64,000 bases of DNA from a virus. Location of the stretch: positions 70,933 to 134,932 of the IMG/VR virus record IMGVR_UViG_3300032287_003622; one strand, given 5' to 3'. Position 1 is the first letter of the stretch; every line of letters begins with the position of its first letter. The translations under genes and the position numbers were made by a program. This document shows positions 36,301 through 64,000 of the stretch, one piece after another. Under the pieces are notes generated by a model. That model saw nothing but the letters and a program-made list of their open reading frames with translations, ran no database searches and had not been told where the DNA came from.

Positions 36301-39300
36301 CTGCCAATCAACCACATTGTCTTGGTTGAGTATGAATCCTTGAGCATTAAGCACTCCGTTCCAACCGGTGCTGACACTGGCCATGAGTCTGAGACGATTT
36401 TGTCTTTCTGCTGTGATGGTGTCATAGATCAAGTCATTAAAAATGGTGCGATTGTCCAACACCATCATGTTTTCATAATCGGTATATTTTAGTTGCAAAT
36501 AACTGATGGTTTGACTGCCGGCCGGATCGGGATTCAAGGAAAACACATTGCCTTGGCGACGTATAATCAAATCTCTCGAGTCAAAAGCCTTGCGATTTTG
36601 ATCCAGCAGTAGATTCTCTGGTGTATAAGTCACTATGGAATCTACCACTGCACCAGGACGGAAAGATGTTATTTGCGTGGCCGATGGATTGAGATTGATT
36701 ATAGTGCCTGGTGCCCATCCTTGATTGGCAAAATACAAGAATTCCTGGGCCATCTGTATCCAGTTCAAGGTGTATCCATTTTCTTGCACTGTGAATGACA
36801 ATCCTTGGCTTGCCAAAAACTGTCCATAACTCAACAAAAAGTCCACTACACCGGTAAGATTTGCAAATGTATAACCATACGGTATCTGTGCGACCTTGTT
36901 GGTATAAGAACTAGGAACAGTGACAGTGACATTGCCGGCTGTCAAAGTTTGGCTGGATCCTGCTACCTGGCTGGTCAATATAGAAAAATAAGGGTTGATA
37001 GCACTGTAACCATATACGCTGTAACCGTCTTCAACTACCTCTACAATGACCGCACTGTAATCTAAACGATTGAAAGGTTGATTTTTATACAGCAACAGAT
37101 TGAAGCTTTCGGGCGGCACCAGCAAACTGGTGTTTTGACTTTGAGCGCTGCCTTTTTCTAGATAAACCGCTAGATTTGATTCGGCCACAAACGAGGCGAA
37201 TCTATAGCACAAACGCACATCTATGTTGTCTAAGTCTGTGGTCAAAGCATCGGTGCTGTCTATTCCTAGTTGCTGATTGTAATCAACTATCCAGTCAATA
37301 TAACTGGCCTTGCTGATTCCGTTGCCATAAACTTCTATCTGCTTGGGTTGTATGCGACCACGACCATCATAAAGATATTGGTCAAACTCAGGACTGTATT
37401 TGTACAAATCTCTGTCTGCAAACAGACTGAAAAATTCTGCTGGTCTTGTCAATATCAGCAAGCGCATGACTGCAAAAGGATAGCTGGAACTTGACCACCA
37501 CGAAGCTTCTACCGGTCCACCGTCTCCCACTTTCCAACTGGCAACAAATCCCTGAGGATCGTATGGACCTACCACACTCTGCAACGGAGGCAAAAGATTT
37601 CCTTGATTGTCCACAGGAATAACTTGTGTGAGTCCAGGTCTACGATATTTTGGAATCACATAAGGAGCTACCGGGTCAGCCACCAATCCCTGTTCAAGAT
37701 CACCCCAAAGCACCAAGTTGTCACTGGTGTAAGGCACTGGACCATAGCGATCTGCCCACCAGCTTGGTTCTTCGCTTAAACCCAACATTTCCCAAGGTGT
37801 GGTATTTGGCGAAGTGGTGTCATAGAAATAACGATATATGCCACGCCAGGCTCCCAACAGTGGCTGATTATTGATTCTATTACCGGCCTGACTGTAGTTG
37901 TAGGTAAATTCATTGTTGGCCAGATAAGTTTGTTGCGTATAATCCAGTTTGTTGGCTCCTACCCAGGCCAGAAATTGTTCGCCCAATATCTGATTTATTT
38001 CTTGTTGATTGTAATCGGTAGTGCGGAAAAATCCTGGAATAACATCTTCAGCTACCAAAGGCGGTGGGTTACCATCATTTTTTAAATTGTTATAAATTCT
38101 GGTCTCAAATTCCAACAACACCCGATCTCTGATGTCACCAAATGCTGTGGTAATAGATCCATCATGTCCTTGAATAACCAAAGTTGGATTCACATAATTT
38201 GTGTCATAAAATATCTTTGGTTGATATTTGGGATACAAACCCAGTTTGGTAGGTGTGTTGGGGACAAAATTTCCCACGGTGCTGGTATATTCATTGATTG
38301 TCACGGTAGACCCGACAGCAAAAGGCACCTGCGGTTCAATGGTCAATGTGGGTCCTTCAGTTGACACAACATAATCTGTATCTCGTGTCAGAAGAACATT
38401 GTCTATGTAAACACACAATCCTTGGTAGTTTGATTCGGTATAACTGTAAGTTTGTGTGAGATTGAATGTTCTTGTGGTAACAGGATTGATTACATATGAA
38501 TTGGAAGTGAATGTTGGACTCGTAGGCAACATATCACTCCAGTAAAATGGATTTACGCTGGTTTTGCCAAGATTGATCTGTGATATTGATTCATCCAGCA
38601 GGCGGGACACGGTCCAATTATCGTAGTCAGCTATGCCAAATGTGGTCACCGTGTTTAATAATTGTGTTTTGAATTTGATATATTCAGAACTGTTGTATTG
38701 CAAGGCACCAAAAATGTTATAGTTGGGATCTCGCATGAAATATCCAGTCAAAGTCAAAGGCGAACTTTGCTGTAATATTTGCAAGCCATAAGGTATCACA
38801 TTGCCCAGGTCTCTCACGTTGTTGGGGCCAATGGGAGGTCCGGACAAATCAATAAGATTTTGGGCTATGGTAACATAATGATTGCGTATGGTGCCCAGGC
38901 TGAATTGCTGGCTGTTTTCGTTGAGAGGATTGTTTTGGAGATTGATAGGAACCTGATAAAATCCTTGTTGACTTATCTGATCGCTCAACACTGCCACAAT
39001 GATCTGATCACCGGGCACATAAGTGGTCAAGAGATTGATAGTGGTAGTGTCGGTGCCTACTGTATATTGATAATTATAGGACTCCTGGAATTCTCCATTG
39101 ATAAAAATCTGTATGGCTGGCACTGTGTTATTGTCATTTACAGCAACATCCAGCAACAAAGGACCACCGTCGTAGCTGAACTGAAATTGTTGCCGCACCA
39201 AGCTAGAGGTCACAGCCGTTTGCCAACCTATCTCTCTTACAAAATCAACCCGGTCACGATATTGACGCACAAAACCTGTGCTAAGAGGCACAGTCAGTCC

Positions 39301-41997
39301 TGTTCCTTCTACAGTGTAGTTGAAAGAATCCTTGTAAAAATTGTTGTCAAATACTATGTCCCCTATGTTGCTGAGACTCAGATAAGTGAGGGGGAATCCC
39401 AATACGATATCTGGTACAGCATCTCCAATGGCGTAACTAAACAAGGGGCTACCTGCAAAATCCGTGCTGGGATAAATCGCTCTGTTGCCAAAACTCACAC
39501 CATTTCTATCATAGATGTCAAACAATGGAGGTTGATTGACATTGTTTTTTTGTTGAGTTTTGATCCAATCTACACCGTCATATCTGTATGTGAGTCCTTG
39601 TTCTATCAGGCCACTGAGAACCACAACATTTTGATCGACCAAGGCTGTGCCATCAGTGACTGGTATCAGTGCAATAATGGGTTGAGTTATCAAAGGCGGA
39701 ACTGAATCTGGTGTTACGAACCGCACTTCGTATATGGTTTTACGGACATCTGCATCTAGATCTGCTGCAAATATAATCCTGGTGCCGTCCAGCACTGTGT
39801 AACCATCGGTGCTGTAACCGGTGCTGCCATTGACCACACTTAATGCGTCAGTTTGTCGAAAATCAATGATGTCAACAGGCTGTTTGCTTTGTGTTCCAAA
39901 ATTGAATAACCTGGTGCCACCACGGAATTCCAAAATAGGTCTTTTGGCTCTGAGTTGATTGTCTATTACTGGTTGGGTATTGTTATACAAAGCAGATGCT
40001 GTGATAACGTCGATATGGAACCATCGATTGCTGCGCGACCATGGATTTAGATCCGGCGAATCTCGCGATATGGTTATGTAATCAGGCGTCAAGGGTTGAT
40101 TCAAACTGGCATCATAATTGCCCAAATCATAGGGCGTGGTATCGTAGGGTATTGACGCACTTTTAGTGTAAGTTTCTGGAGTTATGTAATCAGAAGTGGG
40201 CAACAACTGTATGGCAGTTCCGACACCTTGAACATAGTAAGATTTATTCTTATATTGAGTTGGAAAAACATCGCCTCTAAATATTACTTTGAGTCCGTTG
40301 GTAAAAGTCACTCCGTTGGGGCTCACATAGTTTTTTTGACCTATGATTTCTTCGACATTGAGTGTGTCGGCCTGGGTTTGATCAATGATACGTATCTGAC
40401 CAAAAATTTCTGGGTCAGTTCCATCCTGATACCATAAAATATTTTTGATTGCTGTCAACAATGGAATCTGTTCAAAGAAACCAGATTCATTTTTGTACCA
40501 TCCGGTGTTGCTCCACTGATCGCCAAATGCTATTGAAAACTTGTTGAGAGCGTCAACTTGCAAAATACTTTTGAGGCTCATATAGACCCCACCACCGGCA
40601 GCTATTTCATACTGTATCTGCCAAACACTGTATTGCACCGCTGGATCAGTGATAGGGGTTGTCTGATCAAAGGTCACAGAATCAAAGCCACCGGGCCCTG
40701 GAGGATCGCCTGCCGGCAACGGATCAAAAAATGTTGTTTGTTGCCAGCCGCCGGTGACAGGATCTGTGCCTTGATTCATAAACACAATGGTTCTACCGTT
40801 GAGATTGGTAATACCGTCTATGCCGTTGGGATATTGTGTGAAAAAGTTGTCGACGAATTGATTGTTGATTTGATCAAATTGAAGGTCAGTTATCAAATCC
40901 ACAGAACCTATGCTGGGCAGGTCATAATAAAAATTTTGTGCCGTTGACAAAGGCACATCAAAAGTCACTGTTCCAAGATCCTCGCCATTGTTGACGACTC
41001 CCAATACATCTCGACCACTGATGTTTGGAGTGGCTGGAATACGTCCACTTACTCCAGGGTCTGTCTGTATCCAGAATCCAGGGCCATTGCCAGGAGTGCC
41101 ATCCACAATATTGATTTGGCCTTGTAAATTTATTTGCACATCATTGCAATAATACAAGGTATCAGGCGCATCTTGTGGCACAGTAAAAGTAACAAGCCCC
41201 TGCGCACCACCATTGTTGAAAACACCGTTGGAATATATGTTGGTAGTGCCAAGACTGATCTGTGTTTTAATGTAGAAAGACCAATCAAATGTCTGACTGA
41301 GGTTGAAAACATAGGTATTGCCGCGCACCAAAGTAAGAGTGGGGTTTGGCTGATAGTCTATGTTCCAACTACTGGTTCCGTTGTTGGTCACTCTAAAGTT
41401 GACTGTTTCCTTGTCGTTTTGGGCTACATTGAAAGTGTAGCTGCCGCCGCGAACCAGAGTCAATATTGGATTGTTGCCACTTACTCCGGAAAAAGTATAC
41501 ACACCATTTTCTCTGGTCACATCAAAACTGTCGGTCGATGGTATGCCAGTGGCACTTACGTCTACCGCCAGCGGTCCTCCAGGTAACCAAAAATATTGTG
41601 CATAGTTGATCAATTTATCAAAATCAACAAATGGATCCCAGGCGTAATAATCACTAGTGTAGAGTCGTTGAGCATTGTCAACATAAGAACCTTGCATTTG
41701 CAAAGCATCTGTGATTCCCGGATAAGTTATGGCATCAACCACCCGATGAAAATCTTTTGGATCAACCTGGACCACTCCGGGCTCAAGTTGATAGTCCGTT
41801 CTTGTTTTGGTAGGTTCAACAACATAATTGTCGTTGGCATTGACTCCGGGGCCAACTCGCCGACCAATAAATCCTTGCGATTGTGTGAATCTTGGATTTT
41901 GGATCAACTGATCCAGGGTGGCTGACAAAAACTGCTCATTGATGGGAGTTTGAAAAATTTCTGGTAAGAATTCTACACTGCGCACTTGCTTGGCCAT
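27340..41997 (-). CDS. Giant (4885 aa) baseplate wedge-like virion protein with FG-GAP-like repeats
   Basis: Directly follows gp6 (TAATG overlap); multiple FGxS(V/I)...(V/I)GAP repeats; repeated GDGxTxxF / VxVNxxxQ..DY beta domains. Confidence 0.7.
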   Translation of the reverse strand: MAKQVRSVEFLPEIFQTPINEQFLSATLDQLIQNPRFTQSQGFIGRRVGPGVNANDNYVVEPTKTRTDYQLEPGVVQVDPKDFHRVVDAITYPGITDALQMQGSYVDNAQRLYTSDYYAWDPFVDFDKLINYAQYFWLPGGPLAVDVSATGIPSTDSFDVTRENGVYTFSGVSGNNPILTLVRGGSYTFNVAQNDKETVNFRVTNNGTSSWNIDYQPNPTLTLVRGNTYVFNLSQTFDWSFYIKTQISLGTTNIYSNGVFNNGGAQGLVTFTVPQDAPDTLYYCNDVQINLQGQINIVDGTPGNGPGFWIQTDPGVSGRIPATPNISGRDVLGVVNNGEDLGTVTFDVPLSTAQNFYYDLPSIGSVDLITDLQFDQINNQFVDNFFTQYPNGIDGITNLNGRTIVFMNQGTDPVTGGWQQTTFFDPLPAGDPPGPGGFDSVTFDQTTPITDPAVQYSVWQIQYEIAAGGGVYMSLKSILQVDALNKFSIAFGDQWSNTGWYKNESGFFEQIPLLTAIKNILWYQDGTDPEIFGQIRIIDQTQADTLNVEEIIGQKNYVSPNGVTFTNGLKVIFRGDVFPTQYKNKSYYVQGVGTAIQLLPTSDYITPETYTKSASIPYDTTPYDLGNYDASLNQPLTPDYITISRDSPDLNPWSRSNRWFHIDVITASALYNNTQPVIDNQLRAKRPILEFRGGTRLFNFGTQSKQPVDIIDFRQTDALSVVNGSTGYSTDGYTVLDGTRIIFAADLDADVRKTIYEVRFVTPDSVPPLITQPIIALIPVTDGTALVDQNVVVLSGLIEQGLTYRYDGVDWIKTQQKNNVNQPPLFDIYDRNGVSFGNRAIYPSTDFAGSPLFSYAIGDAVPDIVLGFPLTYLSLSNIGDIVFDNNFYKDSFNYTVEGTGLTVPLSTGFVRQYRDRVDFVREIGWQTAVTSSLVRQQFQFSYDGGPLLLDVAVNDNNTVPAIQIFINGEFQESYNYQYTVGTDTTTINLLTTYVPGDQIIVAVLSDQISQQGFYQVPINLQNNPLNENSQQFSLGTIRNHYVTIAQNLIDLSGPPIGPNNVRDLGNVIPYGLQILQQSSPLTLTGYFMRDPNYNIFGALQYNSSEYIKFKTQLLNTVTTFGIADYDNWTVSRLLDESISQINLGKTSVNPFYWSDMLPTSPTFTSNSYVINPVTTRTFNLTQTYSYTESNYQGLCVYIDNVLLTRDTDYVVSTEGPTLTIEPQVPFAVGSTVTINEYTSTVGNFVPNTPTKLGLYPKYQPKIFYDTNYVNPTLVIQGHDGSITTAFGDIRDRVLLEFETRIYNNLKNDGNPPPLVAEDVIPGFFRTTDYNQQEINQILGEQFLAWVGANKLDYTQQTYLANNEFTYNYSQAGNRINNQPLLGAWRGIYRYFYDTTSPNTTPWEMLGLSEEPSWWADRYGPVPYTSDNLVLWGDLEQGLVADPVAPYVIPKYRRPGLTQVIPVDNQGNLLPPLQSVVGPYDPQGFVASWKVGDGGPVEASWWSSSSYPFAVMRLLILTRPAEFFSLFADRDLYKYSPEFDQYLYDGRGRIQPKQIEVYGNGISKASYIDWIVDYNQQLGIDSTDALTTDLDNIDVRLCYRFASFVAESNLAVYLEKGSAQSQNTSLLVPPESFNLLLYKNQPFNRLDYSAVIVEVVEDGYSVYGYSAINPYFSILTSQVAGSSQTLTAGNVTVTVPSSYTNKVAQIPYGYTFANLTGVVDFLLSYGQFLASQGLSFTVQENGYTLNWIQMAQEFLYFANQGWAPGTIINLNPSATQITSFRPGAVVDSIVTYTPENLLLDQNRKAFDSRDLIIRRQGNVFSLNPDPAGSQTISYLQLKYTDYENMMVLDNRTIFNDLIYDTITAERQNRLRLMASVSTGWNGVLNAQGFILNQDNVVDWQTNTKYTKGDMVLYKNSYWQAIDIIQPKAKFEYGDWYKSNYDLIEQGLLQNLATKAEQLANSYNTQTANLNNDNDLLAYGLIGFRPRQYMTDLDLSSSSQVMIYQQFIKTKGTTQATDLFTKVNFNKEIGEYNIFENWGILVGTYGANANRSWFDIALNEALLNGNPSTVQIIQPGQSSVANQTILLEDLWAESYVTPSTDILPTTYVTNSDSALPSAGYVNINDVDITVFNLNNPSAIARDIGTIGNGTSIWVAQINGYDWAIYRCAQVPGRLIRLTDNLNGTSQAQFSQTTNLERGDLIIVRYFDSAVDGVYRVISVPAIDTVVIEYAFTNSNQTSISGTGLVYYLQSMRVAQASDVAELSYANDLLPGARVWVDNDGSGHWQVIEKQSPFEELQQIQPENLDPNSYFGSSVSQSNDNYSLLVGAPNTLSGTGAVYSYFVDQDNQFAQSLVLTLTAPGTQGFGNSVDFGNRSWAMAGASASNSAAGYAVILYQQPGSQAFVQTQLLTAPDLDFSAIGFGASVIVSDDERMAYVGAPDGNRVYAYGRVDIPTQIITYVANGVTATFTYNTQIAINSAQPEQLVVLVNNLECVYLRDYTISGTLVQLTFVPVAGQRVIIARKQVAQLDFAIYFGVTQDFASGSGTGAVFTVSNTRGQYSVSITSPGINYNIGDTLTVSYTQIDPSGSVANDLTITVTEVTSGGITDFTISGFGVSNTAVFSLAQFLYTATSIDAFTLSVNGVLQRPNIDYIFSYPNVTFLNVPPAGAIIGATAGTYWQYIDTITVSGVDINAKFGASITTDQNGRQVLIGAPFDTALDSQGSPVVYAGAVYAIDRGVIKYIVDNPGQLTYAIPGSFVEPIQVTLNNQYLTNTDQYINGQYSVVGSNIVLNTGLTLNIGDSIEIETNQFQLVQKITANTVIDESEFGYALDICSNNCSVYIGAPLDSYVSQVHQSGMVQRQVNQSRVYGIITTTAANPALVPQNTIRINDMEVSVPAEPNNTVAGLVGAINSAQIPNVVASLVPNVILQGTGSRQVFDIGNIYSTASSYTPIVYVNNVLQILNIDYTYNNSTQQISFVSAPAARARIEVVAGRMTISVINANAAQEFNKLTVLPGISSNDSAEISAFYDLGFVTYAYTQSISSPNPTDYAYFGSSVNVNTGSINLVIGAPNGEVYEATTFDNNLTYFDDRSTTYFNTIANSGVVYTFDYLPSADSSLENPGKFVFGQQVYKNSVQTNDQFGHSVNYRRGRLVVGTPGDEINNSDTNYGSVTVIDNAGDAPVWTVIYNQLPMVDVNLLNSVYSYDKLLTNTQTYFDYIDPLQGKILGVARRNIDYIGAVDPASYNAGLIHNVGTSWGSAHLGQIWWDTNRVRFIDANQDNLIYASRRWGQVFPGSEVDVYQWIESSVPPVNYTGSGTPFSTVSYTVSSLINDQGILVTNYYFWVRGLTTVATEAGKTLSVSAIASYIQNPLGSGLPYIAALSANALALYNANGLLSANDTILHVEYDRQILGGNSNIHTEYEFITDGKPSSFLNANLYRKFIDSFCGIDTLGNAVPDPTLSPGMRYGVQFRPRQSMFVDRLLALKNYLQYVNKILAQFPISETKSFSLLNSAQPIPAANTGAWNLEVPNLEILAYQNIAAVPLGYKYLVMSDASLNGLWSIYTVTDISGGQRELSLTLVQNYYTPAYWNYINWYQPGYNSSITPIATVANTAGLQTLSLQTASVGSSVKVAANGQGKFEIYVRTDTGWNRVGLQDGTIEFSAKLWDYALGRFGFDAEVFDSQFFDQEPTIETRQIIRAINEELLIDELLIERNRALILMFQFIYTELNSPEWLVKTSYINVNHVIRGLLPIQLYQPDNQTFVLDYLNEVKPYHVQNLEFNLVYDGLDRYPGALTDYDVPAYYNTSLESPQFTSPILLPYTYSDSINQSFVSDAPANAQIWLERPWSDWFNNYLLSIQAVEVLDQGSGYTTAPTVSVSGECVRQAQMTAIINSAGKVVAITIDDPGEGYTTTAVLTLVGGGGTGATARAQMGNNLVRSFKTTIKYDRYQYRSTIVDWEPNVVYVAGTRVRWSNLVWSANSTLSGPVFIPSDWTRVSAASLSGVDRTMGFYLPGPNMPGLSLPLLVDGVDYPGVQVDAPDFNQNTGYDVGNFDINPFDNLSVDREGRPTYDYGILDVQYASSYLDLYLGTRPTDINVDGGAYIDTFSSHAPEELIPGSEFDTLDFRVYTTPGSDWTGGGHGFPAGNRRYVYDSANPTVSFAGIIDLPFTVQVFNATLGIAIEPVSYDWANYEVTLGLTETDGDIINVYVTGVGGGNQLYNRTYLGNEVGDTITVPFPYNSIYEFLIYNGETRLEPGVDYTWASQTQTSTRITFVNTYGASDRINLCTLGYAPPEQTTHSWSLPVFQTEISDGSLSIPLVNSLQGTNPVNLIVVSNGARLRPSEGMEHMGDGTTVTFDLPMNGGYSQGLISDNDVSVYVDNQPTIQGINYQVDAWDGSSARTITFFDAPAMGSVILISVRTKAQYWILGDELVFQPANGYSPTPGDIIDIVTWNDTSQQGLLTQVFVGEGESPYHTYDTSHPISNPDRILVTLDGEWLFAGLNFVTVGETKIRITGLPITSNSVIAITCLTQSVVPGAMAFRIFQDMRGLQATYRITSETTTSITAPVSITDDVIYVKDASALNTPDFEINSWGVVTINAERIMYRERNILNNTISSLLRGTAGTAVAAHESGATVYDMSRENLLPTLYQDYINSNTFMADGATSTYVTDIVVDNRPLVYLGGIVQVTVGGNLQDPSTYVVTQVEPVAIEFVAIPALDQQVIVTVLYLDSTEQQQVFTATGSSAKFVTSLDIGLQEQASNTYVLDDFNPVTVTFNTAPFPGLCVYIRTQQGAEDQFYFTFADGSTTTFVTNIDLSIPVRVLIGGIEQDPSTYLVTSLDLVTVQFAQSIPAGLEVVIYVRQGISWYQPGPTTASDGVPLQDTNTQPARFLRGL

Positions 41998-44900
41998 TAG
42001 ATTACTCCACTACCAGGTGCAGTTTGTAGATTCGTGCTGGTCAAGGCAGTGATAACTTCTATATCATTGACTGTGGCGCCATTTACAAAAATCTGATTGG
42101 GTGCCGATCTTATCTCGTATAGATCACCAAAACTTTTCTGTGGATTCAAAGGAACCAACACCACCGAGCTGACCACGTCACCTATGTTTTGATGTATGTA
42201 GGCTGCCAGCTCGCTGAAATAAAACGTGTCTCCAAAATTCCAATTGGCCAAATCAAAGTAAGCATTCATGTTGGCCACCACAAGATTTTTTATAGCACTG
42301 ACACTGGCTGTGCTGTTGGCAGACCGTATGACCTTGATAGTGGCACGCAAAGCTGGGTCGGCCTTTTGACCAAACAATGGTTGGAAAGACACACTGTTTA
42401 GAATCATGTTGTCTGAAATCATTTTGTAATTTTGCAAACCTTGATAAGCTGTGTTGAGATCATCCAATGTAGGTGCGCTGGGCTTGGAAACTGTGCCTGT
42501 GGTATCTTGTAACCAGTTGATATAGGAAGTGTAGTAGGCGTTGGTTACCAAATACACATCAATGATGTTTGTGCTTCCAGGATCAATGCGACTGGTCAGA
42601 GGACTGTTGTGTCGATATTGGAAATATAAACCTTGACGTCCTACTTTGGCCAGATAGGAATTATCTTGAGTCAATGTGGGATTACCCAAGATATCAACTC
42701 CTAACACATAAAAAAGCTGTGTTTGATAGGCATAAAACACTTGGCCAACTTCGTATTGTGTTTGGACTGCTTGGATGCTGGCCAAGGTAGGGTAATCACT
42801 GTTGACAATTCCTGCATCAATCAATAGATAGCGTTGCAAATTGTCAAAATCCACTGTTTGTTGGAAATAGACATATTTTTGATTGCTGTTCACATTAGGA
42901 GCTACAATTTCATCAAAGAAATCTGGATTAATAGGAATTCCATCGCCTAGGGCTCGAGTATAACTGACTTCCACCTGGAAATCGTCAACCAAGCCATCAC
43001 TCAGGACTGGCTGATCAATAATGGTAACCACAGTATCGGATCCCAAAGGCACGCTGGCATCGGGTCTACTGTTGATTTTCAAGATGTTTACATAATCGCG
43101 TATCACAGTTCCAGATCTACTGTCATAGATAGGATCGGCGGTATAAAAGAAGAATCTGGTCTGTAGAACGCTGCCAAAATAATAATTCAGAGATCTGTAT
43201 ACAACTGTGTAGGTAGATCCATTGAATGTGGCCTGGATCAGCCAGGAAGCGTCAAGATTGGATCCAGATGTGTTTTGAGCATAGGTTTGATTCCAGCTGG
43301 CATTGACAGCTAGATTGTTTGAAGTGATCAGATACCAGGTAGCAGTGAGATTATCATAGCCCAGACCAAAGTTTTGATTGAGATAGATTTGTTGCACCAT
43401 CTGTTGTTGTAAACTTACAGGAATGTCTGTGACAAATGTAGGAATTACCTGTGTGGGCAAGGCTCCTGTGGGAACAAAGTTGTTTAAGACCACTGGACCT
43501 TCGCCGGAAGGCAAGTTGCCAAGTCCTTCTGCAGTGCCGGATGTATAGACTGCTGTGGGGCTGGCCCATATGGTCAGTTTTTCATCAGGCCGTGTTGGCA
43601 CCCCAACAACCAAACGATTGTCAGAATCAAAATAACGGCCGGTGGGTGCAACAAATTTTACCAAGCTGCCTTCTGTGATATATTTGGCATTGTTGCTGGC
43701 ATAATTGCCTATGGCCTGAGGATTGCGTGCGGCATTTTGAAAATACCCTGTGCATTCATTGACCAACACAGTGCTCTGATTCCAACTGTAGTTCAGCACA
43801 CTCAAATCTGGGCGTGTGTAGTTGGCAAAATAAAATTGTTGCAGACCGGCCTTGAGCAACAAAGGATTGATCTGATTTATCACAGCATCAGAGATGTCAT
43901 TGATAGTCAACCAACTGAATTGAAATGCCGGCAGTGCAAAATTTTGATAGATAGCACCATCGCTGGCAAAAATATTTGTGCTGGAATACTTGCCTGTGCC
44001 ATCCACCAAATCGAGATATCGACTGGTTCCTATGCTGGCACGATTGACAGCGCTGCTTTTTAAAATACTGTTGTATTGAGTAAAAGGAAATTGGGTGTAG
44101 TCCTCGCCATTGACCATGCGATTTTGAGTATAATATTGAGCAGGAGCACGTTGTTTTATTTCTTGTATGGTTTCGCGTGCCTGTGCATTGGTCACCGGCT
44201 CTGTGATGCCGCAGGTGAACGTGATGGTTTCGATCTGACCTGTTCGGCTCACATAGTTGATGGGCACAGTCACGCTCTGCATTTCGACAGGATTAATGAT
44301 ATAGCTCAATCCATTTGAAGCACGCACATAGGTCCTAAAGGTTCCAACTGGTATGGTGCTGAAAATTCCATCTCCAAAATTCAATGTGATTTGGTCATTG
44401 GTGCGACTGGTCACACTGTAGATATCTCTGGTGCCCGGAGCCAATTGTTCCACGGCAGCTGCGTATACGCTCTGAACCTTTTCCCAATACCCGGCCACGT
44501 TGCCTAAGTTGTTTAATCTATACAACCAAACGTCGGTATTGTTGATGCCTTCTATGTTGATGTTGACTGCACGATTGATGATTTTTTCTGGCAAATTGAA
44601 GTCTTGATTTTGCAATACTCCCTGTTTGAACAAAAAGAAAAAACCTGTGTTGTTGCTGAGGAAACCTTGTTTGTCATTGCGATACATTATATTGAATTGT
44701 CCCACCGGCAGAGGAGGTGGTTCATACACATAATCTTCGCCGGCTGTGGTGGAATTGACCACTTCAAAAGGCATATTGACTGTGTCAATGGTGGCCGTGA
44801 ACGGAACCACAGGAATATAGCCTGGTATGAGATTTATGGTATATTCTTGTGTGTCAACACCCATGATGCTTTTGTTGCTGGATGGTTGCCCAAATTTTTG

Positions 44901-45401
44901 TGTGTTAACCAGGCTGGCATTGAGTATAGTTATAAATTGTTCTTGCCAGTCGGCATTGGTAGGATCTGCCCAGTTCACGGTGATATTGGCCAGATTGATG
45001 CCATTGTAATCAATGATATTCTCAGTGGTAGTCACAGAAAAAACTTTGAGATATCCCGATGCACAGGTATTGCGCAAAGGTGTATAGCTGACCAAATTGG
45101 CCAATTTTACCACGCTGTCTCTGCGTTCGGCGGTGTCTAAGTAGTTTTCTCGGGTGTTTAAATCGGTTCTAAATGCCAGGCTTTGACCCATAAAAGCCAT
45201 GACGTCCAGCAAGGCAATGAATTCTGAACTTTCAATGTAGTCGTTGAAAGTTTCTGGGTAATACAGGCGCAGATAATCTATGAAACTTTTGCGTAGAGTT
45301 TCAAAATCGTAACTTTGGAAGTCGGCTTCTTGATAGACCTGATAGATTTGTTTCCAGTCTTCTACGCCAAAAATCGCTGTTTGTCTTGATGTTGTAGCCA
45401 T
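41997..45401 (-). CDS. Baseplate wedge subunit, T4 gp6-like
   Basis: SYDFETLRKSFIDYL, FNDY..SS, LDTAERRDSVVKLANLVSYTP, ETIQEIKQRAPAQYYTQNRMVNGEDY. Confidence 0.85.
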   Translation of the reverse strand: MATTSRQTAIFGVEDWKQIYQVYQEADFQSYDFETLRKSFIDYLRLYYPETFNDYIESSEFIALLDVMAFMGQSLAFRTDLNTRENYLDTAERRDSVVKLANLVSYTPLRNTCASGYLKVFSVTTTENIIDYNGINLANITVNWADPTNADWQEQFITILNASLVNTQKFGQPSSNKSIMGVDTQEYTINLIPGYIPVVPFTATIDTVNMPFEVVNSTTAGEDYVYEPPPLPVGQFNIMYRNDKQGFLSNNTGFFFLFKQGVLQNQDFNLPEKIINRAVNINIEGINNTDVWLYRLNNLGNVAGYWEKVQSVYAAAVEQLAPGTRDIYSVTSRTNDQITLNFGDGIFSTIPVGTFRTYVRASNGLSYIINPVEMQSVTVPINYVSRTGQIETITFTCGITEPVTNAQARETIQEIKQRAPAQYYTQNRMVNGEDYTQFPFTQYNSILKSSAVNRASIGTSRYLDLVDGTGKYSSTNIFASDGAIYQNFALPAFQFSWLTINDISDAVINQINPLLLKAGLQQFYFANYTRPDLSVLNYSWNQSTVLVNECTGYFQNAARNPQAIGNYASNNAKYITEGSLVKFVAPTGRYFDSDNRLVVGVPTRPDEKLTIWASPTAVYTSGTAEGLGNLPSGEGPVVLNNFVPTGALPTQVIPTFVTDIPVSLQQQMVQQIYLNQNFGLGYDNLTATWYLITSNNLAVNASWNQTYAQNTSGSNLDASWLIQATFNGSTYTVVYRSLNYYFGSVLQTRFFFYTADPIYDSRSGTVIRDYVNILKINSRPDASVPLGSDTVVTIIDQPVLSDGLVDDFQVEVSYTRALGDGIPINPDFFDEIVAPNVNSNQKYVYFQQTVDFDNLQRYLLIDAGIVNSDYPTLASIQAVQTQYEVGQVFYAYQTQLFYVLGVDILGNPTLTQDNSYLAKVGRQGLYFQYRHNSPLTSRIDPGSTNIIDVYLVTNAYYTSYINWLQDTTGTVSKPSAPTLDDLNTAYQGLQNYKMISDNMILNSVSFQPLFGQKADPALRATIKVIRSANSTASVSAIKNLVVANMNAYFDLANWNFGDTFYFSELAAYIHQNIGDVVSSVVLVPLNPQKSFGDLYEIRSAPNQIFVNGATVNDIEVITALTSTNLQTAPGSGVI

Positions 45402-58102: not shown

Positions 58103-58719
58103 AACCACGTATACTGTTAACCGGAGGAAGTTCTGGAATTGGAAAATGTTGCTACGAACTGTTAAAAGACCGTTACGATATCGATGCTCCGACTAGACAA
58201 CTACTGGACTTATCTAAAATTGAGCAGATTGATTCTTGGGATTATAGCCCATACGATGTTATAATCAACAGTGCTGGATGTAATATTGGTACCTATTTGG
58301 GATTCAACCACAACGATTCTTTTAATCAAGTACAACAAATACAAACTAATTTCATTGCCCCTCTATTGATAGCCAAACACTACACCAGTAGTAGACAACA
58401 AGGACAATTTATATACATCAGTAGTGCCAGCATTGACAACCCGTTCGTATATAACATTGTGAATGCTTCCTCAAAATCTGCTTTGAAATATGCCATTGAC
58501 GTTTTACGAACACAGTATAAAAACTTTTCATTCAATGAAATCTGTCCAGGAAAAACCAAGACAAATATGTTGAATCAAAACTATATGAATACTCGCTCAT
58601 CAGATGAAATTGAACTTGAATACTCTAAATCCTCATATCTTTTACCAACACAAGTGGCCAGTCTGGTTGAGTATTGTATAGACAATCGACACATATCCAA
58701 GATTGACATAAATCCATAA
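58099..58719 (+). CDS. Short-chain dehydrogenase/reductase (atypical active site)
   Basis: ILLTGGSSGIG, INSAG, YISS, NASSK, ICPGKTKT. Confidence 0.8.
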   Translation: MKPRILLTGGSSGIGKCCYELLKDRYDIDAPTRQLLDLSKIEQIDSWDYSPYDVIINSAGCNIGTYLGFNHNDSFNQVQQIQTNFIAPLLIAKHYTSSRQQGQFIYISSASIDNPFVYNIVNASSKSALKYAIDVLRTQYKNFSFNEICPGKTKTNMLNQNYMNTRSSDEIELEYSKSSYLLPTQVASLVEYCIDNRHISKIDINP

Positions 58720-60482
58720 TGATCCAAATAAAAAATTTAACTGTTCGTAACTTTATGAGTGTGGGTAACACTACCCAGGCCATTGACTTTGACCGCAAAG
58801 ACCTAACCTTGGTGCTGGGAGAAAACCTGGACATGGGCGGAGATGGTTCCAGGAACGGCACAGGCAAGACCACTATCATCAACGCACTCAGCTATGCCTT
58901 GTACGGACAGGCCTTGAGCAACATACGCAAAGACAACCTGGTCAATAAAACCAACGGCAAGAACATGTTGGTCAGTCTAGAATTTGTAGTGGGCGCACAA
59001 GAATACAAGATCGAACGTGGTCGAAAACCCAATGTGTTGCGTTTTTATGTCAACAACCAGGCACAAAAAATCACCGACGAAGCACAAGGTGACAGCCGAG
59101 AAACACAGGACGCCATTGAGCATGTGCTGGGGCTCAGTCACGATATGTTCAAACATATCTTGGCGTTGAACACTTATACCGAACCGTTCTTGAGTCTTAA
59201 AGCCAACGATCAGCGTACTATCATTGAACAACTGTTGGGCATAACCATGCTCAGCGAACGAGCCGACCGTATCAAAGAACACAACCGGCAGACCAAAGAG
59301 GGCATACAACAAGAAGAATTCCGCATACGTGCTGTGCAGGAAGCCAACAAGCGCATAGAAGAACAGATCGAAGCCTTGCGACGCAGACAAACATTATGGA
59401 CTACCCGACATGAAGAAGAGATTGCAAAACTTACGACCGCGCTCGAAGAGCTCAAGAAGATTGACATTGAAGCCGAGATACAGGCACACAAGGCACACAA
59501 AGTATGGGATCAGAAGCGCAAGGACCTTAACGACTTGGCTGGACAAATCTCCCGCACGAAGCTTGATAAAGATCGCGAGAACAAAAGCATTGAGAAGCTT
59601 GTCAAAGAGATTACGACTCTTGAAAATCACACATGTCACACCTGTGGGCAGGCTTTCCATGACAGTAAGCACCAACAGGTCCTGGCGGGTAAGCAGACTG
59701 ATCTGGTGGGAGCGCGAGCGGCGTGCCAGGAACATACACAGCTCTTATCAGAACTTGAGACTGCCCACACAGCCTTGGGCACGCTAGGAAAACCTCCGGT
59801 CATGTTCTATGATCGAGAAGAAGATGCCATACAGCATAGAAGCAGTTTGTCTGCGTTAGAAAAGCAGTTGGAAAGCAAACAGGTCGAAACGGATCCTTAT
59901 GAAGAACAGATTGCAGACATGCAAGGTCAGGCCCTGCAAGCGGTAAACTATGACACTCTCAATGAACTTACCCGATTGCAGGAACATCAAGATTTCTTGC
60001 TCAAACTCCTGACCAGCAAGGACAGTTTTGTTCGCAAAAAAATCATTGAACAGAATTTGAGTTATCTCAATGCACGACTCACACACTACTTGGATAGGAT
60101 TGGTTTGCCACACACCGTGGTATTCCAAAACGATCTCTCAGTCAGCATTGAAGAACTGGGTCGTGAACTGGATTTTGACAACTTGAGTCGTGGCGAACGC
60201 AATCGTTTGATTCTCAGCATGAGCTGGGCCTTCCGCGATGTGTTTGAAAGTCTGTATCAACCCATCAATGTGTTGTTCATAGATGAGATGATTGACTCGG
60301 GCTTGGACACACAAGGTGTGGAAAACAGTCTGGCCTTGCTCAAACACATGAGTCGTGAGCGGCACAAGAGTATTTGGCTGGTATCGCACAGAGACGAGTT
60401 GGCCGGACGTGTGGAAAACATACTCAAGGTGGTCAAGGAAGGCGGATTTACTACCTACAACACGGATATCGAAATTGCGTAG
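58719..60482 (+). CDS. Recombination ATPase subunit, gp46 / SbcC / Rad50
   Basis: NFMSVGN, Walker A NGTGKT, zinc hook CHTC, signature LSRGE, Walker B LFIDE, VSH. Confidence 0.95.
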   Translation: MIQIKNLTVRNFMSVGNTTQAIDFDRKDLTLVLGENLDMGGDGSRNGTGKTTIINALSYALYGQALSNIRKDNLVNKTNGKNMLVSLEFVVGAQEYKIERGRKPNVLRFYVNNQAQKITDEAQGDSRETQDAIEHVLGLSHDMFKHILALNTYTEPFLSLKANDQRTIIEQLLGITMLSERADRIKEHNRQTKEGIQQEEFRIRAVQEANKRIEEQIEALRRRQTLWTTRHEEEIAKLTTALEELKKIDIEAEIQAHKAHKVWDQKRKDLNDLAGQISRTKLDKDRENKSIEKLVKEITTLENHTCHTCGQAFHDSKHQQVLAGKQTDLVGARAACQEHTQLLSELETAHTALGTLGKPPVMFYDREEDAIQHRSSLSALEKQLESKQVETDPYEEQIADMQGQALQAVNYDTLNELTRLQEHQDFLLKLLTSKDSFVRKKIIEQNLSYLNARLTHYLDRIGLPHTVVFQNDLSVSIEELGRELDFDNLSRGERNRLILSMSWAFRDVFESLYQPINVLFIDEMIDSGLDTQGVENSLALLKHMSRERHKSIWLVSHRDELAGRVENILKVVKEGGFTTYNTDIEIA

Positions 60483-61341
60483 AATACGAGTATTACACAT
60501 TGAACCCACAGACGTCTGTCAGGCCGCATGTCCTATGTGCGCCAGAGAGACTGATACTAAATTTAGAAAAGATCAAAAACATCACTTGCGTGTGGAGAAA
60601 ATACAACAGCATTTTAGTGACCGAGTGATTGGCAATCTTGACAAGATGTTCATGTGCGGCAATTACGGAGATCCGGCTGCTGGATACTACACCATGGACA
60701 TCTACCGATATTTTAGAAAAGTCAATTCCGACATTGTGTTGGGGATGAACACCAACGGTGCTGTGCAAAGTACATTTTTTTGGCATGCCTTGGGCGGCCT
60801 GTTCAATCAGCCCAAAGATTATTGTGTGTTCAGCATTGATGGGTTGGAGGACACCAATTCGATATATAGAAAAAATGTCAATTGGGACAAGCTCATGGCC
60901 AATGCACAAGCGTTTATTGCGGCCGGAGGAAGTGCCCATTGGGACATGCTGGTCTACAAGCATAATCAGCATCAAGTAGATGAATGTGAACGCCTCGCCC
61001 GAGACATGGGCTTCAAATGGTTCCGTGCTAAGATTTCCAAACGTGGGTTCACAGACAGATTAGAATTTCCTATTGGTTGGAAGGAACCCGTAATCACACA
61101 GGGGCCAATACAGTGTCATGCTCAACAGGAACGTAGCATGTATATAGATGCACAAGGTCGAGTCAGTGCCTGTTGTTGGCTGGGTGCCACACAAAGTGAT
61201 TTTGTCAAAGACGATTTGGCCACAGTAAAACAATCTTGGAAAACAGAAACTCCACACCCAACATGTAAAAAAACTTGTTCTACTAGCAAATCAAAAACAA
61301 GTTTTACAAACCAGTGGCAACGGGAGGTTAATCTTGTTTGA
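60475..61341 (+). CDS. Radical SAM protein with C-terminal twitch/SPASM-like Cys cluster (start revised to TTG 60475)
   Basis: CQAACPMC; CGNYGDP; NTNG; FSIDG; C..GRVSACC..CKKTC. Confidence 0.85.
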   Translation: MRRIRVLHIEPTDVCQAACPMCARETDTKFRKDQKHHLRVEKIQQHFSDRVIGNLDKMFMCGNYGDPAAGYYTMDIYRYFRKVNSDIVLGMNTNGAVQSTFFWHALGGLFNQPKDYCVFSIDGLEDTNSIYRKNVNWDKLMANAQAFIAAGGSAHWDMLVYKHNQHQVDECERLARDMGFKWFRAKISKRGFTDRLEFPIGWKEPVITQGPIQCHAQQERSMYIDAQGRVSACCWLGATQSDFVKDDLATVKQSWKTETPHPTCKKTCSTSKSKTSFTNQWQREVNLV

Positions 61342-62446
61342 TTACAACATCATAGACGAATATCAACTTGAAATAACTTCTTACTGCAATGCTGCCTGTC
61401 CTCAGTGTCCACGAAACAACAACGGCGAAGGTGTAAACCCTAGAATGCCTCTTTGCCATTTAGGTAGAGATGTCATTGACCGAGCTTTTCCTACCGAAAT
61501 GTGTGCTCGTCTCCGTCAAATATTTTTTTGTGGCAGCTACGGTGATCCTATCATGCACCCTGATTTCTTGGATATTCTAAGAGATTTTAGGAAAAAAAAT
61601 CCTACCCTGTGGTTGTATTTTCATACCAATGGCGGTGCTCACGATGCGGATTATTGGACAGAGGTTGCTAGAATCATGGCAGGATATGGACAAATTGACT
61701 TTGGTATAGACGGCCTAGAGGACACTTTACATCTGTACCGCCGTAATGTAAAATACAGCCGGGTCATCGACAATGCCCAGGCATTTATACGTGCAGGAGG
61801 TCGAGCGCAATGGAACTTTATTGTGTTTCGACACAACGAACATCAAGTAGAACAGGTCCGACAGCTTGGAGAACAAATGGGATTTTTCAATGTATTGATT
61901 AGAAAAACTGGAAGATTTTTCAATCATAGAACTGTGGAAGAAATGTCTTCGTGGCCGGTGTCCAACAAATATGATCTAGAACCACCTTCGCAGGATGAAT
62001 ATCGCAATCAAAGCATGTTGTTTCTTCCTGAACTAAAAAAACAATACAGCAACATCAAAGATTATTTTGACACCACACCCATACGTTGTGATGCCTTGAT
62101 AGGACCCAAAGTGGTAGTCAATGCCGAAGGATTGGTTTTGCCTTGTAACTTTTTCAATCATAATTTGTATGATCGTAGATTTTACGAGCCCGGAGTATTG
62201 CCCGAGTCCAACGAATTAAGCACTATCAACGGACAAAATCAAGTTCGGGCATTTTTAGAGAGTTACACGCTGGACAGTTTTAATATACATTTGCACAGTC
62301 TCAAACAAATATTTGAAAACCCCATGTGGTCTGATTTAGTTGCCAGCTGGAATAAGACTTTAGCTCAAGGCAGATTGTTTGAATGTGCCATGACCTGTGG
62401 TTCAAAAATTACCAAGGTGTGGGATCAAGGAGGAAGCAAAAGATGA
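61334..62446 (+). CDS. Radical SAM protein with C-terminal twitch/SPASM-like Cys cluster
   Basis: CNAACPQC; CGSYGDP; HTNG; FGIDG; C..GLVLPC..CAMTC; paralog of the preceding gene. Confidence 0.88.
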   Translation: MFDYNIIDEYQLEITSYCNAACPQCPRNNNGEGVNPRMPLCHLGRDVIDRAFPTEMCARLRQIFFCGSYGDPIMHPDFLDILRDFRKKNPTLWLYFHTNGGAHDADYWTEVARIMAGYGQIDFGIDGLEDTLHLYRRNVKYSRVIDNAQAFIRAGGRAQWNFIVFRHNEHQVEQVRQLGEQMGFFNVLIRKTGRFFNHRTVEEMSSWPVSNKYDLEPPSQDEYRNQSMLFLPELKKQYSNIKDYFDTTPIRCDALIGPKVVVNAEGLVLPCNFFNHNLYDRRFYEPGVLPESNELSTINGQNQVRAFLESYTLDSFNIHLHSLKQIFENPMWSDLVASWNKTLAQGRLFECAMTCGSKITKVWDQGGSKR

Positions 62447-63033
62447 AATATATGATTACAGGTGGCAACCGTGGTCTTGGCCAGGCCCTGGCCAGGCACT
62501 TCAACGGTGACAGTTTCAGTCGTAGCTGTGGTCATGATATAACCAAAGACTCCGATCGTGCCTGGATGGCCAACAAAAGTCTGGAATATGATGTATTTGT
62601 TAACAATGCTTTTGATGGTCCGTTCCAGGAATCATGGGCGGATTTTGGTCAGATAAAAATTTTATATGATGTAGCAAATTGTTGGCGGCACAACAACAAG
62701 CAGGGATGGATCATCAACATCGGAAGTGTAGGTACTCAAAATATTGTTGCGCCAGATCCAGATTTTGAAACCTATAGGATTTCTAAACTGGCTTTGAAAT
62801 CACATAGCCAACAATGGACTCGTGCATTCAAAGAAAATCGTGTAGCGTTCAAAACCACCCTCCTGACCTTGGATCGGCTGGACACTGAACTCACACGCAA
62901 CAGACCTACTTGGACTGGAAATGGACACAACCTGCATGATATCTGTCACTATATAGAATTGATTACAAACGGTGCAAATAATACTTGTATAGAAGAAATT
63001 ATAGCCTGGGTGAATTTTGATCATAAACAATAG
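62443..63033 (+). CDS. Short-chain dehydrogenase/reductase (start revised to 62443)
   Basis: AGGAGG RBS and ATGA overlap; MITGGNRGLG, VNNA, INIGS, YRISK. Confidence 0.8.
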   Translation: MKYMITGGNRGLGQALARHFNGDSFSRSCGHDITKDSDRAWMANKSLEYDVFVNNAFDGPFQESWADFGQIKILYDVANCWRHNNKQGWIINIGSVGTQNIVAPDPDFETYRISKLALKSHSQQWTRAFKENRVAFKTTLLTLDRLDTELTRNRPTWTGNGHNLHDICHYIELITNGANNTCIEEIIAWVNFDHKQ

Positions 63034-63036
63034 TCC

Positions 63037-63474
63037 ATGTCATGGCTATTCGAAAGCAAAGCAATTGAAACCTTACCCGAAGATTGCGTGGGTTTTGTTT
63101 ATTTGATCACAAATAACACCACCGGAAGAAAGTATATTGGAAAAAAATTAGCAAAATTTAGCAAGACAACATATAAGGTAGTGAAACTCAAGAACGGCAA
63201 CAAGAAACGCAAGAAAATACGTGGCAAAATCGAATCAGACTGGCAGACATACTACGGCAGCAACGAACAACTCAACAAAGACGTAGAACGCTTAGGCGCA
63301 GGCAACTTCACTCGAGAAATATTATACTACTGTAGGTCCAAGGCCGAATGTAGCTACATAGAAGCTCGCGAACAATTCTCAAGACGTGTATTAGAGTCGG
63401 ATGACTGGTACAATGGACACATTCAGGTGCGTGTGCATGGTAGCCATATCCGCAAATTAAACGACTCTGTTTGA
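63037..63474 (+). CDS. Stand-alone GIY-YIG family nuclease
   Basis: GFVYLITNNTTGRKYIGKK, YYGS, FTREIL, E(AREQ), YNGHI; no appended DNA-binding domain. Confidence 0.75.
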   Translation: MSWLFESKAIETLPEDCVGFVYLITNNTTGRKYIGKKLAKFSKTTYKVVKLKNGNKKRKKIRGKIESDWQTYYGSNEQLNKDVERLGAGNFTREILYYCRSKAECSYIEAREQFSRRVLESDDWYNGHIQVRVHGSHIRKLNDSV

Positions 63475-63795
63475 TCTGGGCACCCAGATCCACAAGGAGG
63501 AACGGTGAGATACCCGGTCCAGATGAGCTTGTGTGTCAACGGCAATTGCTAACTTAAGGCAACAAATGGTAGGGGCTCTGTGAAAAAGCGACAACCCCAG
63601 CTCATAGGACTTGGTTCTTCTCGGGTCACTAGGGTTCCGTTGATATGTGAAGCTTGAGTAGGGGGTACCGGTCAACCGCCTCCGCGTCGAAAGACAATCT
63701 CATTAGAATGAAGTGACTGTGCTACTCGGATAATGCAGATCATTGTTCACCGTGCATACGGTGAATTGTGACCACTTAATCTGGATAATACGGAA
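63473..63795 (+). ncRNA. Candidate large structured non-coding RNA, family not recognised
   Basis: Nested helices found by eye: 63518-24/63779-85; about 18 bp 63525-42/63637-55 with G.U pairs; 63656-61/63722-27; hairpins 63473-90, 63669-78, 63686-95 (GAAA loop), 63746-65. Confidence 0.6.
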
Positions 63796-63803
63796 AGACA
63801 ATG

Positions 63804-63844
63804 ATTGATGAGCGACAGCGAATCAATAGATCTCATTGAGATCT
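63804..63844. other. Two tandem hairpins
   Basis: ATTGAT-GA-GC-GACA-GC-GA-ATCAAT and AGATCTC-ATT-GAGATCT. Confidence 0.55.
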
Positions 63845-64000
63845 CAGAGCTGATCAGGAAAGTCTCGAAAGAGTGCGTGCTGGATGTTGCCACTCACAAA
63901 CTGATTGAAACTTTTGTGTTTGGTTTCTAGTTCGCCTTCAAGTGGTGCTACTCTGCGAAATGCTTCATCCATTTGGCCCATGTCGCGGAACTCCATTAAA
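63844..64000 (-). CDS. 3' end of a small protein, DUF6614-like (5' end beyond window)
   Basis: Read by hand: ..LMEFRDMGQMDEAFRRVAPLEGELETKHKSFNQFVSGNIQHALFRDFPDQL*; family call is from memory of the ALxRDFPD C-terminus. Confidence 0.6.
   Translation of the reverse strand, partial: LMEFRDMGQMDEAFRRVAPLEGELETKHKSFNQFVSGNIQHALFRDFPDQL

Follow-up and report, generated by a model that had tools for sequence, protein, structure and literature searches.

A predicted pseudoknotted RNA with twin sequence boxes behind a stand-alone GIY-YIG nuclease gene of an uncultured giant T4-like phage

Introduction

Polynucleobacter-1 (RF01718; 141 nucleotides, nt), the described RNA closest to the one reported here, is given in a table row of Weinberg et al. 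(2010, Genome Biol 11:R31, PMC2864571) as a likely RNA, possibly cis-regulatory, from Burkholderiales and from fresh water or estuary. Large, intricately folded, phage-borne non-coding RNAs of unknown function are represented by GOLLD and ROOL, and compact nuclease genes beside a large structured RNA on the same strand by the OMEGA systems (IscB or TnpB with omega-RNA). For nucleases of the GIY-YIG fold, the points of comparison are the catalytic domain of I-TevI, the T4 Seg enzymes and T4 endonuclease II (EndoII, DenA). The DNA analyzed here, called the window throughout, is a stretch of 64,000 nt from IMG/VR virus record IMGVR_UViG_3300032287_003622 (positions 70,933 to 134,932). Near its end, a gene for a GIY-YIG nuclease of 145 amino acids is followed on the same strand by a predicted pseudoknotted RNA of about 320 nt that carries two identical 7-nt boxes.

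The window is the final 64 kb of a 134,932-bp contig, base 64000 being the contig end, and CheckV completeness of that contig was 39%. Contigs of relatives with the same locus span 337-347 kb and two of them have terminal repeats, and the source is therefore an uncultured giant T4-like lake phage. The original prediction, made from the letters and their open reading frames (ORFs), had read the gene and the RNA as a candidate nuclease-RNA system, with the RNA as scaffold, guide or substrate, or alternatively as the mark of a replication or recombination origin. The reading favored here, to which we give somewhat better than an even chance, is that they are two separate genes sharing a transcript. 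The nuclease would then be an ordinary one, and the RNA would belong to a widespread, almost undescribed family of large pseudoknotted RNAs.

Evidence for a structured RNA

The 369 nt between the nuclease stop codon and the convergent gene contain no plus-strand ORF of at least 40 amino acids before 63805, and their G+C content is 0.50-0.52, compared with about 0.42. Loci were fetched via the nuclease protein, and the RNA stretch was matched in 74 of 80; four had less than 400 nt downstream, and two had room without a match. Twenty-nine relatives were aligned, with pairing partners slid by 1 to 3 columns and 500 shuffles serving as controls. The refined structure comprised 74 pairs in 15 helices, one of them a pseudoknot. 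Across the 29 relatives, standard pairs filled 95.5% of cells compared with 36.8-48.2% when slid, two-sided changes were seen in 30 pairs compared with 1-9 when slid, and the observed covariation score was reached by 0 of the 500 shuffles. RNAalifold with the 29 copies returned 61 pairs, of which 19 had compensatory changes and many were G-U; the abundance of G-U pairs places the RNA on the plus strand. Folding of the single sequence is weak evidence when taken alone (z score of -1.61 for the plus strand and -1.87 for the minus strand), and the case for the RNA thus rests on covariation. By that comparative evidence, positions 63473 to about 63790 appear to be a genuine pseudoknotted non-coding RNA of ~320 nt on the plus strand, in keeping with the structured RNA that had been proposed downstream of the nuclease.

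The first element, hairpin H0, overlaps the TGA stop codon of the nuclease gene (63472-63474). A hairpin of variable sequence 5' of P1 is a general feature: 53 of 53 unique segments folded with at least 5 bp, compared with 56% of shuffles, and the median folding free energy was -10.2 kcal/mol compared with -2.6 kcal/mol for shuffled segments. The overlap with the stop codon noted in the original prediction holds in the window at 63473-63490, but it is not conserved, a hairpin lying within the stop codon plus 22 nt in 27 of 61 segments compared with 28 of 61 when shuffled. The claim that no terminator separates the gene from the RNA agrees with a scan of 62300-64000, in which 0 terminator-like sites were found on either strand (mean for shuffles, 1.4).

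P5 never varies, and the alignment is therefore silent on its pairing. P10 may be the hairpin of the second box unit or, read on the minus strand with a T-rich stretch next to it, the terminator of the convergent gene. ARAGORN found zero tRNA and zero tmRNA (transfer-messenger RNA) genes in the whole window. Rfam gave no match to a group I intron, although divergent introns can escape the model; no exons were apparent, the RNA lying between a stop codon and the convergent gene. A Shine-Dalgarno-like AAGGAGG with a 15-codon GTG ORF (63505-63552, ending in NGNC; region 63495-63552) is most likely no gene, as the motif is lost in relatives (CATTGAGGAA) and lies inside helix P1a. A pile-up of depth over 63534-63695 in three runs, which consist of contigs and are probably DNA, stems from contigs of relatives with the conserved core, and no inference was drawn from it. 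Contigs of three aquatic runs join 63685 to 63804 and 63737 to 63844, skipping 118 and 106 bases; the probable sources are relatives whose 3' module is different or shorter.

Relatives of the RNA

A search of window positions 60000-64000 against Rfam at E <= 1 returned nothing, RF01718 included. Many relatives matched the RNA profile over the 3' half only. Scores of 69.5-95.3 bits for RF01718 (gathering score, 37) were obtained with their 5' halves: 7 of the 9 loci searched had such a match, as did 2 of 14 loci at greater distance. Three forms, types A, B and C, were distinguished, all of which have a common hairpin with GGUACCGGNCAACCGCC and a common 3' module. Types A and B, which also share the sequence of P7, sit directly behind an orthologous nuclease gene. 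The third 5' form, type C (L033, L350, L364 and L389), had no Rfam match but carries twin boxes, for example ACAUGAU or ACAUGAA in both units. The RNA family is modular: types A, B and C have exchanged their 5' domains and kept the 3' module. From these comparisons, the type A RNA of the window is an uncatalogued sister of the type B RNA, the front end of which is Polynucleobacter-1.

Polynucleobacter-1 resembles the RNA of the window in its genomic place and, in type B RNAs, in the GGUACCGGNCAACCGCC hairpin and the twin-box 3' module; a GGGUCAC(U)AGGG stretch also recurs, by eye, in both type B and the window's RNA. It differs in that the window's RNA has no RF01718 match at E <= 1 and its 5' domain, P1 to P5, is built otherwise. 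The RF01718 model spans no more than the initial third of the type B RNA, and the twin-box module is thus uncatalogued. Where the table row lists a possible cis-regulatory element, the RNA described here stands at the 3' end of a phage operon. In the literature, that table row in PMC2864571 was the only printed trace found, and nothing was found on the window's RNA or on a pair of a GIY-YIG nuclease and an RNA. The size and folding of the RNA recall GOLLD and ROOL, but there was no Rfam match to either and the window's RNA is far smaller (~320 nt). Neither GOLLD nor ROOL is known to have twin identical boxes.

The family occurs in uncultured T4-like phages from 345-kb lake to 130-160-kb marine genomes. 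Detection of the RNA used nhmmer profiles and patterns, which divergent forms may escape; the pattern scans list at least 120 loci each, and the strict patterns catch close relatives only. A blastn search of 50,697 phage records gave zero matches for window positions 63000-64000 or for a marine variant.

Twin boxes

The two box 7-mers lie 55 nt apart and flank hairpin P9. They were identical in 220 of 224 unique modules, with 12 haplotypes, and in the four exceptions the pattern apparently took an upstream look-alike word. The G/A position of the box changes at least 17 times on a tree from which the box columns had been left out. Among 12 phylogenetically independent pairs, the boxes changed together in 11 and oppositely in 0, and in 1 one of the two boxes did not differ (p about 0.001). 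RNAalifold with 218 sequences paired the 3' module only at P9 and left the boxes single-stranded. As the boxes change often yet stay identical, something outside the RNA would read both alike; such variability combined with identity is an unusual evolutionary signature that implies a sequence-specific reader, and its identity would reveal the use to which these abundant phages put the RNA.

Complements of the boxes, wobble pairs allowed, had no consistent position within +-1.5 kb (best 10-nt bin, 36 of 222). The 135-kb contig holds zero strict complements of the boxes and zero further copies of the unit, and in five genomes of 262-347 kb the unit pattern was found nowhere but at the RNA locus. 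No consistent helix between the 7-nt spacers of the units emerged by eye or with RNAalifold. The box haplotype did not track columns of the nuclease, the best normalized mutual information being 0.16 at the G/A position; for the two other frequently variable box positions it was 0.29-0.32, below the 0.35 reached for RNA type. A guide role for the RNA is hard to square with this lack of covariation with nuclease residues, the twin 7-mers being its sole "programmable" parts.

A hairpin comes after each unit (63804-27 in the case of the second), and the twin units may accordingly have arisen by an old tandem duplication of ~55 nt. The 55-nt unit was also considered as a templated repeat of the reverse-transcriptase-like kind and rejected, since by eye, and not by computation, it has stops on both strands and no reverse transcriptase gene nearby.

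The nuclease

The protein matched PF19835 (SegE_GIY-YIG) over residues 3-129 and profile positions 1-123 of 123 with 113.6 bits (cut-off, 25; E 8.6e-33), and a Pfam scan of all 145 amino acids returned nothing beyond PF19835 and hence no separate C-terminal DNA-binding domain. Because the match spans residues 3-129 of 145, there is no space for a second domain. The protein falls in phrog_447 (PHROGs, E 9.3e-37), the label of which, "NAD synthetase," is a misnomer repeated across many phage records. An AlphaFold2 model from an alignment of 86 diverse members had a mean predicted local distance difference test score of 96.4 and placed the basic stretch KVVKLKNGNKKRKKIRGK on a long beta-hairpin (strands 40-50 and 56-66). 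The description of the protein as a GIY-YIG domain with a basic insert was thus correct. The basic hairpin was present in 8 of 8 aligned sequences; since homologues without the RNA also have it, a few residues shorter, the insert is a feature of the protein family. Among the 86 members, E109 and N126 were invariant and Y22, Y33 and G35 were at least 90% conserved, in line with the two Tyr motifs, Glu and Asn of the superfamily; these would correspond to the catalytic residues of I-TevI.

Foldseek gave zero matches to PDB at E <= 0.001, whereas a wide structural search succeeded. Its top four matches were all GIY-YIG proteins: the I-TevI catalytic domain (1ln0_A; Z 8.2, root-mean-square deviation 2.8, 82 residues), PD-T4-3 (Z 7.3), the UvrC N-terminal domain (Z 5.7) and T4 EndoII (PDB 2wsh; Z 5.4, root-mean-square deviation 3.7, 84 residues). 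With I-TevI and the T4 Seg enzymes the window's nuclease has the fold in common, and with Seg the SegE family, but it has no linker or DNA-binding domain and instead has the long basic beta-hairpin insert. T4 EndoII is likewise a small single-domain GIY-YIG protein, with a chain of 134 residues, and is thus a known case of a GIY-YIG enzyme to which no DNA-binding domain has been joined, although phmmer against PDB at E <= 1 found 3r3p alone and no sequence match to EndoII. EndoII works alone, and it degrades host DNA together with gp46/47. Given the structural match to this short enzyme, the earlier premise that a lone GIY-YIG domain needs outside help carries little weight.

The family is large: 2137 clusters (50% identity) matched with E <= 0.001, and the majority of the 150 listed have lengths of 130-180 amino acids; homologues in cultured phages came to 612 places in 610 records. 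The median ratio of nonsynonymous to synonymous substitution rates (dN/dS) was 0.105 for the 43 of 150 random within-clade pairs with a usable dS, which places the nuclease under purifying selection within the clade. To judge from its sequence, it is probably an ordinary, selected, stand-alone GIY-YIG enzyme of the SegE/phrog_447 family, kept by many T4-like phages.

Linkage of the nuclease gene and the RNA

Linkage was counted in loci found through the RNA alone. Among the matches listed, 112 type A loci had 650 nt or more of upstream sequence (8 others fell short), and 110 of them carried the nuclease gene there in the same orientation. So did all 109 type B loci listed with 900 nt or more (10 others fell short). 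Types A and B together thus give 219 of 221 among the matches listed, a near-universal presence that differs from the sporadic one of the homing type of T4 Seg; the co-occurrence that the original prediction had called for is there, and it holds despite variable flanks. The fixed spacing expected along with it is not, since in 22 of the 219 loci among the matches listed one or two whole plus-strand genes (0.5-2.1 kb) intervene, ending at the start of the RNA. These genes encode proteins of 264-356 amino acids (L005 3434-4267, L030 3443-4453, L008 3365-4435 and others). Three that were tested had zero Pfam matches; several show GCSxTxG-like motifs, which we take to be reminiscent of SGNH hydrolases.

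The RNA stands without a GIY-YIG gene before it in 2 of 221 loci among the matches listed, L137 and L140, and to that extent it occurs independently of the gene. In L137 (reverse-complement coordinates 12195-12707), a PD-(D/E)XK nuclease gene lies directly before the RNA (PF24608, E 1.1e-24), and L140 has an unrelated gene upstream and an HNH-motif gene just downstream. The RNA locus may accordingly attract different nucleases, as far as gene content indicates.

In 51 diverse IMG/VR loci (adequate flank was required; 18 were skipped and 11 were duplicates), the RNA was found in 34 of 41 with gp46 upstream and in 1 of 10 without. Three of the seven gp46-linked loci without an RNA match hold non-coding gaps of 404-466 nt. 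Homologues in cultured phages have gaps to the next gene of 149 nt (Melnitz, 50% identity), 28 nt (phiN3) and none (S-SSM7), and hence these three have no room for the RNA. With 9 of 10 loci outside the gp46 neighborhood and these three phages without it, homologous nucleases often lack the downstream element, which counts against the proposed system. The RNA goes with its genomic place, where the gp47-gp46 operon ends and faces baseplate genes, more than with the protein family, and the two are therefore read as separate genes.

Interpretation

Under the favored reading, the nuclease gene would yield a compact protein-only GIY-YIG DNA endonuclease that works without RNA. The RNA would close the gp47-gp46-...-nuclease transcription unit and arise by read-through from the gene before it, and its working part would be the common 3' module. 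There, a rigid scaffold would expose one and the same single-stranded 7-nt word (GGAUAAU in the window) before and after a hairpin, and the two words would hold two copies of one sequence-specific reader, either a nucleic acid of complementary sequence or a dimeric protein, encoded elsewhere. Several observations weigh against this reading. Among the matches listed, 197 of 219 nuclease-RNA pairs were directly adjacent, tighter than the flanking gene order, and such adjacency amid variable flanks could reflect a functional tie. Marine phages of 130-160 kb, with the order gp47, gp46, small ORF, nuclease and RNA, retain the pairing at a protein identity of 53-60%. The sole clear replacement of the GIY-YIG gene, in L137, is another nuclease, and the basic hairpin is 3-6 residues longer in RNA-linked proteins than in the three aligned homologues without the RNA behind. 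These same points, together with the co-occurrence and an RNA that begins at, or at most about 70 nt from, the stop codon, would suit a functional partnership without a classical guide, in which the RNA is a scaffold, a timer, an inhibitor (RNA-antitoxin-like) or a recruiter through twin-box pairing. We regard such a partnership as unlikely, as homologues elsewhere in phage genomes do without the RNA, whole genes are inserted between the pair, the box haplotypes are independent of nuclease residues, there is no guide-like end segment and the basic hairpin is a family feature.

Adjacency would also result from co-conversion, without joint function, if the nuclease were a present or former free-standing Seg-type homing endonuclease targeting a conserved RNA gene. 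T4 SegB, which adjoins tRNA genes, is a precedent for such an arrangement; the SegE family membership, the near-invariant 55-nt RNA core as a suitable target and the hot spot for mobile nucleases (HNH in L140, PD-(D/E)XK in L137 and homing endonucleases flanking the phiN3 homologue) fit it as well. Homing is nevertheless distinctly unlikely in view of the near-universal presence, the strong purifying selection (dN/dS about 0.1), the lack of a DNA-binding domain in the Pfam scan and the single conserved copy at other loci in 610 cultured phages. The twin boxes themselves might be a programmable bivalent reader that clamps two complementary copies in host or phage nucleic acid and recruits the neighboring nuclease; the pyrimidine triplet CUC or UCU before each word of 7-10 nt could wobble-pair with GGG. 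If true, RNA would here direct nucleases in a way of a new kind, recruiting a GIY-YIG enzyme or, in L137, a PD-(D/E)XK enzyme, but we think it a long shot. That the transcript stays on its template by gp46/gp47 as an origin or primer RNA and starts replication or recombination, its boxes and hairpins acting as DNA, is very improbable: the RNA does adjoin the gp47/gp46 recombination nuclease genes at a convergent junction and has direct repeats 55 bp apart, but broad covariation with G-U pairs and a pseudoknot points to a folded free RNA, the RNA profiles match nothing near gp46 in Pseudomonas phage PA5oct, and an AT-rich unwinding element was not noticed, none having been looked for. A strict guide-RNA system like IscB/TnpB, with a conserved scaffold and a variable guide programming the GIY-YIG nuclease, is scarcely credible. 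In its favor, a compact nuclease and a structured RNA are encoded side by side in the same orientation, as in OMEGA, and the twin 7-mers vary between close relatives. The variable guide-like segment that such a system would call for was not seen, however, as the RNA has no unstructured hypervariable end: hairpins stand at both, the conserved one at the 5' end (53 of 53) and co-varying ones after an A-rich linker at the 3' end. The boxes are merely 7-10 nt long, internal and duplicated, and no complement was found nearby or in the 135-kb contig. The enzyme is GIY-YIG and not RuvC/HNH, there is neither a transposon end nor a terminal guide segment, and the RNA is no constant companion of the protein family, which mostly lacks it outside one context (16 of the 51 diverse loci have none). 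Guidance of a GIY-YIG enzyme by RNA would have offered a new principle for genome editing; no evidence for such a system was obtained, and in this respect the result is mostly negative.

Coordinates and genomic surroundings

Coordinates of the nuclease gene, the predicted RNA elements and the convergent gene are provided in Table 1.

Table 1 Features at the end of the window, in window positions (helix numbers refer to the refined structure)
Feature	Positions	Strand	Description	Basis
Nuclease gene	63037-63474	+	Stand-alone GIY-YIG nuclease, 145 amino acids (SegE_GIY-YIG, phrog_447)	ORF list, PF19835, AlphaFold
H0	63473-63490	+	7-bp hairpin GATCTGG-GCAC-CCAGATC, variable sequence, first element	Sequence; 53/53 unique relatives
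P1 domain	63491-63533	+	P1 (63491-94/63530-33), P1a (63499-501/63518-20), P1b (63503-05/63514-16)	Two-sided changes in 6/10 pairs
P2	63546-63562	+	Hairpin, near-invariant 7-nt loop AACUUAA	Helix 4
P3	63572-63598	+	Hairpin, GGGG/CCCC plus inner 2 bp, conserved loop GUGAAAAAG	Two-sided changes in 4/6 pairs
P4	63605-63631	+	Hairpin; loop 63615-63621 pairs with 63705-63712	Helices 7-8
P5	63632-63654	+	Invariant core GGGUUCCGUUGAUAUGUGAAGCU, predicted pairing only	Helix 9; 7/7 pairs invariant
P6	63655-63702	+	Closing helix around P7 (63661-63683, holds GGUACCGGUCAACCGCC) and P8 (63686-63695)	Helices 10-13
Pseudoknot, 3' strand	63705-63712	+	Partner of P4 loop	Helix 8; two-sided changes in 5/7 pairs; mutual information
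Box unit 1	63713-63734	+	GUGAC, 7-nt spacer, CUC, 7-mer GGAUAAU (63728-63734), predicted single-stranded	Alignment, RNAalifold
P9	63746-63765	+	8-bp hairpin between boxes	Helix 14; sole RNAalifold helix in 3' module, 218 sequences
Box unit 2	63768-63789	+	GUGAC, 7-nt spacer, UCU, 7-mer GGAUAAU (63783-63789), same as box 1	Module comparison
P10	63804-63827	+	Co-varying hairpin after A-rich linker	Helix 15; two-sided changes in 7/8 pairs
Last hairpin	63829-63843		GATCTC-ATT-GAGATC, abuts stop codon of convergent gene	Sequence, mutual information
Convergent gene	63844-64000	-	3' part, cut by contig end	ORF list

On the plus strand, gp46 is followed by two radical-SAM genes, a short-chain-dehydrogenase-like gene and the GIY-YIG ORF. 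The gp46-like protein is encoded at 58719-60482, its nearest counterpart in a cultured phage being that of PA5oct (52%). The interval between gp46 and the nuclease gene (60355-63033, plus strand) holds the two radical-SAM genes (PF04055; one slightly under the cut-off) and the short-chain-dehydrogenase-like gene, and in locus L003 it holds a single radical-SAM gene. Among the matches listed, the upstream neighbor of the nuclease falls into 28 gene clusters across relatives, and the interval is therefore regarded as a variable cargo slot; the direct neighbor is gp46 in 78 of 213 loci. The gene after the RNA falls into 21 clusters and is a baseplate-hub gene in 51 of 191 loci, again among the matches listed. 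Marine relatives (L357 2237-2491, L362 2238-2477 and similar loci) have an ORF of 70-84 amino acids between gp46 and the nuclease, with a weak, sub-cut-off likeness to the histone-like Hc1 (E 1.4e-4).

The translation of the convergent gene resembles, by eye, a 111-amino-acid DUF6614 protein (PF20319, E 1.8e-20) of locus L205. This locus is NZ_JBBAKG010000003.1, a 148-kb contig filed under a Haliscomenobacter metagenome-assembled genome (MAG) and the single match of one pattern scan of bacterial genomes; it carries the same phage locus, with the nuclease, a type A RNA and genes for DUF6614, baseplate-hub and tape-measure-like proteins. Most probably a contig of phage origin was binned into this MAG, and the locus is no proof of host.

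In PA5oct, the GIY-YIG gene is absent behind gp46, the three RNA profiles gave zero matches at E <= 10, and Rfam gave matches at chance level only. A gene-poor stretch of ~1.4 kb lies there between RusA-like and baseplate-hub genes (L405 7000-8530; NC_071039.1 about 75650-77180), where the annotation has no more than four ORFs, of 117-153 nt; the stretch also contains TTGACA...TATAAT, which is sigma-70-like, is dissimilar to the twin-box RNA and could hold another RNA. Elsewhere in the window, 27340-41997 on the minus strand is a single ORF of 4885 amino acids, followed by one of 1134 amino acids (41997-45401), both predicted giant proteins.

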